A stretch of DNA of 64,000 nucleotides from an uncultured Acidimicrobiales bacterium (GTDB taxonomy: Bacteria > Actinomycetota > Acidimicrobiia > Acidimicrobiales > UBA10347): positions 232,451 through 296,450 of the forward strand of contig CALSSD010000010.1 of the NCBI GenBank assembly GCA_943788915.1, read 5' to 3'. This document shows, one piece after another, positions 33,001 through 36,000 of this stretch (its first letter is position 1; each line of letters starts with the position of its first letter). The position numbers are program-made.

Positions 33001-36000
33001 TGTCATCGGTGCACTGTTAGCTGGTGGGCTCGAGCCGCTCTGGGCTGCGGCGATCGGGACGTGGCTTCATGGAGCCGCAGGGCAGCAAGGCATGCCACAC
33101 GGTTTTGTTGCCTCGGATTTACTCGACGGCCTCCGCCAGGTCACGAACCAACTGCTTGGCCGATGACGATTGTCGCTGTGGGCGGTTGAACCACCGGGCA
33201 TCTCGAAGCAGCTTCCAGGTCCGGTTTGGGCGAGTGGATGCCGGTCGAGACAGCCGAAGGGTATGTAATGGATCGCGGCGGCAATTTTGCTAGCTAGATT
33301 CGTGTCGTTACTGTCCTGCAAAGCCAGACGGAGAAGCCCACATGCGTCCAACCGAAGCAGTCATTGACCTAGGGGCCATTGGCCGCAATGTTGAACGCCT
33401 GGTTGCTCGGGCCGCTCCTGCACAGGTATGTGCGGTGACCAAGGCAGATGGATACGGCCATGGCAGTGTTGCATCAGCTCGAGCCGCTCTAGACGCCGGT
33501 GCTACGTGGATCGCTGTGGCGCTGGTGGAGGAGGGCATCGAGCTCCGCCGGTCAGGTGTGACCGCCCCGATCTTGCTGTTGTCGGAGCCGCGTCCTGGCG
33601 AAATGTTCGAAGTCGTCGAGGTCGACCTCACACCGACCGTCTATTCGCCGGTCGGCCTAGCCGCGCTGGTCGCTGCCGCCGGGTCAAGACGGCTCACCAA
33701 GCCGGTCGATGTCCATCTGAATCTGGATACCGGTATGAACCGAGTTGGGCTACGTCCCGAAGGCAACCGAGATACCGCCGACGGTAGTCATGCCCTCGAA
33801 GTTGTGCGGGCGATTGCGGATAAGCCCGATATCCAACTCGGCGGCGTGTGGACACATCTCGCGGTCGCTGACGAACCTGGTCGACCCGAGACGGATTTGC
33901 AGCTCGGCCGTTTCCGCTCGTTACTCCACGTGCTGCGCGATGAACTCGACGAGTCGGTGATTATCCATGTAGCGAATTCGGCAGGTCTGTTGGCGCGCAA
34001 CGACGCGCTGTTTGACATGGTTCGGGTGGGTATCAGCACGTACGGCATCGAACCAGCAGTTGGGTTGGGTCACGACCTAGGTCTTGAACCAGCGATGACA
34101 TTGACGACACAATTGTCGATGGTCAAGCGTGTCTTTGCGGGCGAAGCGATTTCCTATGGGCTTGAGCACACCTTCGAGGCTGAGACTGTCGTTGGCACGA
34201 TTCCCATGGGGTATGCCGACGGGCTCCGTCGTGATTCTTACCGCAGGGGCGGCCAAGTCATTGTTGGCGGTCAGCTTCGACCGATCATTGGTGTCGTCAC
34301 TATGGATCAAGCCATGATTGACCTTGGCCCGAACGCCGTCGATGCCGAAGGTGACCCGGTCGTCATTATCGGCGACCAAGGCGACGAATCGATTTCAGTC
34401 CACGACATTGCCGCAAGGCTCGACACGATTCCGTATGAAATTGTGTGCGATACCGGACGGCGCGTCCGCCGGCGCTACCTGTAGCAGCAGGATCCTTTCA
34501 TGGCCCGGGTAGTGCTCGTCGAGCCGTACTACGGCGGGTCACATCGCGCTTGGGTCGACGCCTGGGTGCGTCACACTCGCCACGAGATAACGCTGGTCAC
34601 ACATCCCGATGAATTCTGGCGGTGGCGCATGCGCGGCGGGGCGGTCACACTGGCTGCTGCCTTCGACGACGTCGTGGCAGCGCATGGCCGGCCCGATGCT
34701 GTTGTCGTCAGCGGACTGGTCGATGTCGCTGCCTTTGCGGGTCACGCCCGGCGATCCCTTGGCAACAGGCCGCTTGCGACGTATGTGCACGAGAGCCAGA
34801 TGCTCTACCCCCTGGCCCCGAATCAACGGGCTGACACGTCGTTGGCTCTCGTCAACTGGCAGTCGCTCGTGGCATCAGACCAGGTGTGGTTCAACTCGAC
34901 GTTCCATCGGGATGCGTTGCGAGAGGCCATGCCTCGGTTGCTGAAGTCACAACCCACGCCGTCACACATCCATCTGGTTGACCCGGTCTTCGAGCGTTCG
35001 ACGGTGTTGTGGCCCGGTGTCGAGACCGTTGCGCTGATCGCAGGTGAACGAAGCGAACGTGAGATGCCGCGGGTGCTGTGGAACCAGCGATGGGACCACG
35101 ACAAGAACCCCCACGCAGTGTTCTCGGCGCTGGCTGATCTTGCCGACGAAGGGGTGTCGTTCACGGTTGCGCTTGCGGGTCAGAACCAACGCCCCGACAA
35201 CCCCGAGTTCGCGTGGGTACGCGAGCGGCTGGGCGAACGCATCGTCCATTACGGTTTTGTGCCAGATGACGAATATCAGGACTTCCTGCTGAGCGGTGAT
35301 GTTGTGGTCAGCGCTGCTGGTCATGAGTTCTTTGGGATAGCGATCGTCGAAGCGATTGCAGCAGGAGCTGTGCCCATCTTGCCGAACCGGTTGAGCTTTC
35401 CCGAGTTGATCGAACCCTCATGGCACCAGACAACGCTCTATCCAGACGGCGAACTTCGCAACCGGCTCCGTTCGGTGCTGACCGACGTTGGAGCGGCCAA
35501 AGCAGCGGTGGATGGGCTCCGTAAGTCGATGGTTTGTTTCGATGCAGCAACCTCGGCGACGGCACACGACGACGCAATTGATCAACTCATGTTGCGCCAA
35601 CGCTGACACTGGGGCGTTGGGCTCGGCGTGACTTGTGCCACCAGGACCGCAGGGCTGGTCCTTGCGGCAGGTAAATTCGTTGGGTGGAACGCACCGCCGA
35701 CTTCTCTGCGCGTTCAGCAGGGCCTGATGACACTGCCGTGATAGCCGAGGCCATCGCCGCGGTCCTTCTGCCAGGCGACGTACTCGTGCTTGGCGGCGAC
35801 ATGGGGGCTGGTAAGACAACGTTCACCAAGGCACTTGGTGCTGCGCTGGGTATCACCGAAACAATCACCAGTCCCACTTTCACGCTGCATCAGCAGTACG
35901 AGGGCGGCCGGTTCACACTGCATCATCTCGATGTGTACCGGATCGACCAGATCGAAGAAGTCGTCGACTTGGCACTCCCGGAACTCTTCGAGAGCGGGGG

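Follow-up and report, generated by a model that had tools for sequence, protein, structure and literature searches.

Queuosine (Q) is extended with a sugar in animals, where QTMAN (GTDC1) mannosylates the allylic hydroxyl of Q and ignores the other one, and manQ and galQ are ascribed to animals or vertebrates in the two studies concerned (PMC8654956, PMC12518689). The substitution K296A in human QTMAN abolishes manQ, according to a recent preprint (bioRxiv 10.64898/2026.06.28.735034). As for bacteria, a 2026 compendium of their RNA modifications, searched by term, gave glutamyl-Q, the product of GluQRS, as the only Q derivative, and the strings mannos, glycosyl, galactos, and manQ do not occur in 300,000 of its 309,985 characters (PMC13602947). 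No report of bacterial glycosyl-Q was found among the titles and abstracts searched, although the original QTMAN paper (PMID 37992713) may mention bacterial homologues, nor did the literature searched yield papers naming DUF3524, PF12038, or IPR022701.

The bacterial PF12038 family is nevertheless large, with 757 clusters at 50% identity (E ≤ 1e-30), and its members are already named after QTMAN by homology in NCBI and the ESM Atlas. What is new here is the co-occurrence of the family with QueG/QueH and with salvage genes. We started from a stretch of 64,000 nucleotides (the window) of an uncultured Acidimicrobiales genome, which contains one such glycosyltransferase (GT) gene:

34500..35606, plus strand: QTMAN_N (formerly DUF3524) and GT4 glycosyltransferase, a predicted tRNA-queuosine glycosyltransferase of 368 aa with a GT-B fold

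Domains, motifs, and predicted fold

The gene is an open frame with an ATG start and zero internal stops. A preliminary description of this DNA had reported a full-length QTMAN homolog, and the Pfam search bears this out: QTMAN_N matched with 151.7 bits (gathering score, 25; E = 2.1e-44) over positions 1 to 168 of a profile of 168, placing the protein in PF12038, and Glycos_transf_1 follows C-terminally at residues 192 to 329. None of the NCBIfam families matched the 368-aa protein at or above its cut-off. The genome has this single QTMAN_N match, and 14 control genomes had none. In GC (0.616) and GC3 (0.694) the gene resembles those that flank it, and no indel within it was listed in metatranscriptome read data. 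Since the depth of the contig in four metatranscriptome runs (one study) was flat across genes and spacers, as DNA would give, these runs say nothing on transcription.

In a 134-row alignment of bacterial family members, H97, R197, K202, G227, and E284 are fully invariant, and the motifs GGSH, WxWR, HExQ, FNS, RWxxDKxP, and EFFG nearly so. The window protein retains every family motif, with S99 where N is usual. The main ones are as follows:

34533..34544, plus strand: GGSH loop, residues 12 to 15, family-conserved (G13, S14, and H15 in 125 to 129 of 134 rows)
34617..34637, plus strand: WRWRMRG, start of an aromatic/basic helix, residues 40 to 46 (W40 in 132, W42 in 125, and R43 in 131 of 134)
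34788..34799, plus strand: HESQ motif, residues 97 to 100, family form HE[N/S/T]Q (H97 in 134, E98 in 133, and Q100 in 133 of 134)
35079..35111, plus strand: WNQRWDHDKNP motif, residues 194 to 204, with R197 and K202 invariant
35325..35351, plus strand: E-x7-E motif of retaining GT4s, E276 FFG ... E284 (E284 in 134 of 134; E276 is E or D in 134 of 134)

The roles given to residues here are those of general GT4 enzymology. R197 and K202 are predicted to bind the donor phosphate, and the C-terminal GT4 domain carries these R/K donor residues together with E-x7-E. K202 is a candidate counterpart of the human K296. H97 presumably sits where the catalytic-site histidine of GT4 enzymes lies. Two positions behind it, the family has N in 100 rows, S in 20, and T in 11, S99 of the window protein being a minority state. 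The segment WRWRMRG, whose position 41 is K or R in 130 of the 134 rows, is a candidate RNA-contacting patch.

An AlphaFold2 model of the protein (pLDDT 97.4, pTM 0.94) has a GT-B fold, and the model together with its fold matches agrees with the retaining GT-B fold of the QTMAN family. Solved GT4s, namely sucrose-phosphate synthase (6kih), BshA (6n1x), PimA (2gej), and PimB' (3okc), matched it with Z of 26 to 33 over 314 to 342 residues. These four and MshA (3c4q) share the fold of the model at an identity of 10 to 18%, and a GT4 fold this generic does not point to any one acceptor. Neither sequence nor fold searches of the PDB returned a solved QTMAN structure; the earlier remark that no PDB entry is related by sequence stands, as only generic GT4s match.

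The protein might instead be a run-of-the-mill GT4 whose acceptor has nothing to do with Q (a lipid, a small thiol or polyol, or a cell-surface glycan), the animal QTMAN having been repurposed later and the co-occurrence described below reflecting lineage and parallel loss. GT4 enzymes switch acceptors readily, and the solved structures that come closest are of enzymes for small molecules and lipids, both of which speak for such an origin; weighed with the genomic evidence, we regard it as unlikely. Ten long homologues were scanned for fusions to RNA-related domains and had none. Fusion partners seen once each were MOSC, peptidase S58, and beta-mannosidase.

Genomic neighborhood and the t6A genes

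The order of genes is glmS-like, nnr, alr, the GT gene, tsaE, tsaB, a rimI-like GNAT gene, tsaD, groES, and groEL, the last two being what we take their translations to be. ORF calls and family matches agree with the position between alr and tsaE-tsaB-rimI-tsaD given in the preliminary description:

33342..34484, plus strand: alr, alanine racemase (TIGR00492 above cut-off)
35684..36199, plus strand: tsaE (TIGR00150 above cut-off)
36199..36897, plus strand: tsaB (TIGR03725 above cut-off)
36894..37466, plus strand: rimI-like GNAT acetyltransferase (TIGR01575 at 80.9 bits, below the cut-off of 86.4)
37463..38479, plus strand: tsaD (TIGR03723 above cut-off)

The run alr-tsaE-tsaB-rimI-tsaD-groES is an old one in actinobacteria. 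Placed inside it, the GT could work with the t6A machinery or at another tRNA position, and tsaE is indeed 81 bases away on the same strand with no promoter-like site between (the promoter and terminator scan of the locus gave results at chance level). To judge from related loci, such a role is very improbable. We compared the best 80 of at least 599 loci from a scan of species genomes, 81 with the window; these 80 come from Acidimicrobiia, Anaerolineae and Caldilineae, Rhodothermia, and a few others. Within 6 kb of the GT gene, tsaE was found in 11 of the 81 loci, alr in 10, and recR in 8. Loci with tsaE or alr group into a single clade of Acidimicrobiales (support of 99 in a quick tree), and tsaE directly adjoins the GT gene in 3 of the 11, with peptidase S58 and/or uracil-DNA glycosylase genes in between in the other 8. 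Two members of the clade have the GT gene with alr and an alpha/beta hydrolase gene at a locus without tsaE. The clustering with tsa genes across lineages that would mark an accessory gene of t6A (TsaBDE) is therefore not seen, and the GT gene is patchy, whereas t6A genes are, to our knowledge, near universal. Synteny here amounts to one insertion of little weight; we dropped it as functional evidence. The position next to tsaE probably reflects a passenger effect, an insertion confined to a single order, a possibility raised at the outset.

Elsewhere, the surroundings of the GT gene are diverse. None of the 80 relative loci has tgt, queA, or queG in the neighborhood, and 125 candidate neighbor frames (from a list of 175 with a few added, many of them shadow frames) belong to scattered housekeeping families. 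Glycan-related neighbors are few, i.e., an AftD-like GT-C in loci L010 and L065 and a GT4 in L029, alongside the fusion to beta-mannosidase in protein P0271. These are compatible with an unrelated acceptor; that the GT gene is single-copy and lies outside glycan clusters argues against one.

Co-occurrence with the queuosine route

By its genes, the genome of the window should be able to make mature Q34, with Tgt, QueA, and QueG all present, as first reported: tgt and queA lie side by side on contig C6 and queG on C13. All four tRNAs with GUN anticodons were found, including tRNA-Asp(GTC). A phage QueC used as a probe found no QueC in this genome, and so preQ1 would probably be salvaged.

Among 251 Acidimicrobiia genomes at least 90% complete, 56 have QTMAN_N and 160 have Tgt. 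All 56 carriers have Tgt, and QTMAN_N appears in 0 of the 91 genomes without a Tgt match, which speaks against an unrelated acceptor. Because Tgt loss is clustered, we also counted by family (14/32 versus 0/19; Fisher p = 7e-4, a value that is overstated since kin are not independent). A phylum sample of 211 genomes gave Tgt in 9/9 carriers, three of them outside Acidimicrobiia and in three families, versus 115/211 overall; one genome with Tgt and without QTMAN_N (G501) is included in the tallies. Across phyla, Tgt was found in 49 of 50 carriers, which represent 50 of the best 80 loci. The GT gene is absent from 104 of the 160 class genomes with Tgt. Most relatives with Tgt and QueG are without it, and if two dispensable genes were lost together, this could look like dependence.

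The later steps of the route were followed in the 58 actinobacterial QTMAN_N carriers other than the genome of the window. QueA is present in 58/58 and QueG in 55/58 at E ≤ 1e-30, 40 of these above the curated cut-off. One QueG match (G553) is partial, with one stop upstream, and has both iron-sulfur motifs within one open frame. Two carriers without QueG (G606 and G633) have QueH adjoining queA-tgt, so that a gene route to mature Q34 is present in 57 of the 58. The sole carrier without both QueG and QueH (G453) has a QTMAN copy in which an in-frame deletion has removed 25 residues, among them the GGSH loop and the first helix, and a second short stretch is also lost; the deletion could stem from an assembly error. 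Neither the replacement of QueG by QueH nor this decayed copy would be predicted if the acceptor were unrelated to Q.

Turning to genomes with Tgt and without QTMAN_N, of which 80 out of 104 were tested, QueG was present in 66, and the other 14 were also without QueH. Ten of these 14 were searched for QueA, and all had a match to the family; three genomes of group g47 have a weak QueA paralogue only, queA being missing from its usual site. Of the genomes of families f22 and f31, 28/40 with QueG have an intact QTMAN copy versus 0/11 with neither QueG nor QueH, at equal genome sizes. A full-length profile search of four of the f22/f31 genomes without QueG and QTMAN found no remnant of the gene, and in the closed genomes compared the QTMAN gene lies a long way from queG. 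A tree of 50 genomes of both families (G450 and G501 left out) places seven independent losses of QueG, on its starred branches, and no such lineage has an intact QTMAN copy. Independent contrasts stood at 4:0, with ties in 3 (p = 0.125); the result falls short of significance and leaves some room for an unrelated acceptor. The QueG/QueH pattern fits the chemistry: animal QTMAN accepts no hydroxyl but the allylic one, and before the QueG or QueH step this hydroxyl of Q is not yet allylic.

A second lineage was examined in Chloroflexota, in 251 genomes from the class of an Anaerolineales bin (G002), with QTMAN_N in 98, Tgt in 249, and QueA in 227. Tgt co-occurrence is uninformative in this class, as nearly every genome has Tgt. 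Dependence on QueA was not found either: QTMAN_N occurs in 10 of 24 genomes without QueA (20 listed as such and 4 deduced from the positive list) versus 98/251 overall (p = 0.83), and salvage genes explain 8 of these 10. Seven of the 10 have a variant Tgt with GGSLG, versus GGL[AS]VG of preQ1 enzymes (Gly at the pocket Val), and an eighth (G240) has a frameshifted copy of it. Queuine-inserting Tgts typically have GG[LS][AS]G, according to a published account (PMC11570991), a close match by which the GGSLG variant may be taken as queuine-inserting. Qng1 was found in the same number of QueA-less carriers, 8 of 10 (5/5 searched, and three by tblastn beside the variant Tgt). Among draft assemblies, G290 has a preQ1-type Tgt and no QueA match, G285 only a partial QTMAN_N match, and the carriers G204 and G046 no match to Tgt. 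A mutual exclusion of QTMAN_N and GluQRS was not seen, both being present (GluQRS above cut-off) in 2 of 5 carriers tested. This co-occurrence, the carriers without a Tgt or QueA match, and the lack of que genes at the 80 loci count against a Q-modifying role. The pairing of Qng1 with variant Tgt in place of QueA is again not what an unrelated acceptor would predict.

A GT that glycosylated free queuine, queuosine, or Q-monophosphate for storage, salvage, or export, and not Q in tRNA, would depend on Tgt, QueA, and QueG/QueH in just this way, and Qng1-type salvage is present in carriers. We consider this quite improbable, given that the conserved WRWR aromatic/basic patch would better suit a larger polyanion. 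The characterized member of the family also acts on tRNA, according to the preprint (bioRxiv 10.64898/2026.06.28.735034).

A putative queuosine glycosyltransferase and its relatives

Judging from these sequence patterns, the GT probably glycosylates mature Q34 in tRNA. We favor Q glycosylation because intact copies nest almost only in genomes able to complete Q, including those in which the route has been replaced in part (QueH for QueG; Qng1 and variant Tgt for QueA). The bacterial glycosyl-queuosine transferase first proposed for this gene has thus gained the nesting inside a complete mature-Q route and lost its argument from the tsaE neighborhood. In the host, Tgt, QueA, and QueG would make Q34; the GT would bind the anticodon loop via its conserved N-terminal domain, would need the product of QueG/QueH, in which the double bond renders the hydroxyl allylic, and would transfer a hexose from a nucleotide sugar to the cyclopentene diol of mature Q34 in one or more tRNAs with GUN anticodons, as animal QTMAN does. 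The genome also encodes what we take to be PimA-, PimB-, and MshA-like proteins from their motifs, and the first two suggest that GDP-mannose is made; the chances that it is the donor are about evenly balanced, and tRNA-Asp could be the target or not with similar probability.

On a wider scale, we lean, somewhat less firmly, toward a sugar on Q34 of many bacteria (Acidimicrobiia, Anaerolineae, Rhodothermia, Planctomycetota, Desulfobacterota, and others), installed only after QueG/QueH or queuine salvage. Animal manQ would then have been inherited from bacteria and might protect the anticodon loop against nucleases, and a distant branch of the family in phages would add sugars to 7-deazaguanine in DNA. 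If the prediction holds, it assigns a function to a widespread bacterial family and adds a new tRNA hypermodification to glutamyl-Q in bacteria; QTMAN, for which the PDB copies searched contain no solved structure, could then be studied through small soluble enzymes from bacteria. The dependence pattern makes this predicted and so far unreported bacterial tRNA modification directly testable, with the sharp prediction that no product forms on epoxy-Q.

The phage relatives are the most distant of the systems compared. A viral contig (L117) carries folE, Gat-QueC, an oxidoreductase, a GT4 with NHRWEFDKNP, a Tgt-like gene, ParB, and a likely terminase, and jumbo phages of Xanthomonas and Burkholderia (PhiXhv-15, BCSR5) have relatives of its GT4 next to Gat-QueC or close to queE and folE. 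These GT4s, from clusters of the 7-deazaguanine DNA-modification type, share the RWxxDKNP and ExFG motifs with the family (hhalign probability, 98.6 to 99.4), but they have no QTMAN_N match, and their alignment to it spans residues 124 to 315 at most, omitting most of the acceptor domain. A QTMAN cluster ranked 30 of 30 in the ESM Atlas search with the phage GT4. The first viral scan gave one distant locus and a second recovered that locus alone; the window protein had zero matches in 50,697 phage records, and the terms glycosyl, sugar, and glucos do not occur in PMC10516641. The target of the phage GT4 is likely DNA, and the clusters hint at an old link between the GT family and 7-deazaguanine.

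GluQRS (YadB), the bacterial glutamyl-Q34 synthetase, likewise adds a group to Q34, that of tRNA-Asp, with a fold and chemistry different from those of GT4s; unlike QTMAN_N, it is without a counterpart in the genome of the window, where a GluRS search found no GluQRS-like paralogue. Compared with other bacterial DUF3524 proteins (annotated as tRNA-queuosine alpha-mannosyltransferase domain-containing), the window protein has HESQ where HENQ is the commoner form, and its Acidimicrobiales clade is inserted between alr and tsaE. With animal QTMAN, the comparison was by domains and fold alone, a longer-length search for animal sequences having returned only bacterial-type proteins. The window protein is bacterial and of 368 aa, and has the architecture of the animal enzyme in common, a full-length QTMAN_N followed by a GT4 domain in a retaining GT-B fold, in a genome that likewise has tRNA-Asp(GTC) and the genes for Q34.

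Window genes and tRNA clusters

Further genes of the window
19672-25795, minus strand: large ORF, alpha-2-macroglobulin-like by appearance, 1822 aa
27017-28337: presumed phosphoglucosamine-mutase-like gene, named by motif
28395-31820: GlmS-like ORF, 1141 aa

The GlmS-like ORF is far above the usual GlmS length of about 610 aa, and similar long forms occur at loci L007, L008, and L011-L013. The mutase-like gene is apparently split into two overlapping frames (27017-27583 and 27258-28337), which appears to reflect a frameshift or an assembly error. The N-terminal part of the alpha-2-macroglobulin-like ORF is seemingly spread across overlapping frames (24741-25795).

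Elsewhere in this genome (G000), contigs C20 and C28 bear second copies of the tRNA clusters Glu-Asp-Phe and Lys-His-Arg found on C5 and C10; the Asp and His genes are identical between the copies, consistent with the contamination figure of 7.7%. A tRNA-Sec is also present.

Possibly incomplete queuosine routes

Seven genomes of actinobacterial families f22 and f31 (G417, G435, G444, G468, G480, G519, and G525) carried both Tgt and QueA and gave no match to QueG or QueH; their pathway may end at epoxyqueuosine or use some unknown reductase. Group g47 (G300, G378, and G411) retained a preQ1-type Tgt alone.

QueA-less genomes from the class of the Anaerolineales bin G002 have a variant Tgt in which about 30 residues are inserted and the pocket reads GGSLG; it usually sits directly behind Qng1 (L118-L131).

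Example locus of the variant Tgt
G217:C151:8656-11190

Qng1 and this variant are likely a queuine-salvage pair in free-living Chloroflexota.

Other GT4 genes, a fusion, and phage clusters

At L004:356-2640 of G000 (contig C13), a GT4 gene distinct from the QTMAN_N gene of the window lies directly 3' of queG; we take it from its motifs to be PimB-like. In a single protein, P0271 (1244 aa), QTMAN_N/GT4 is fused to a GH2 beta-mannosidase; this may be a read-through.

Phage clusters with Gat-QueC/folE/queE and GT4
L117:170-8644
L138:5855-9941
L139:5407-12517

Their GT4 carries the RWxxDKNP motif, and alongside it lie a Tgt-like gene and either a GFO oxidoreductase or a PIG-L deacetylase, which makes these clusters candidates for producing a sugar-bearing 7-deazaguanine in phage DNA.
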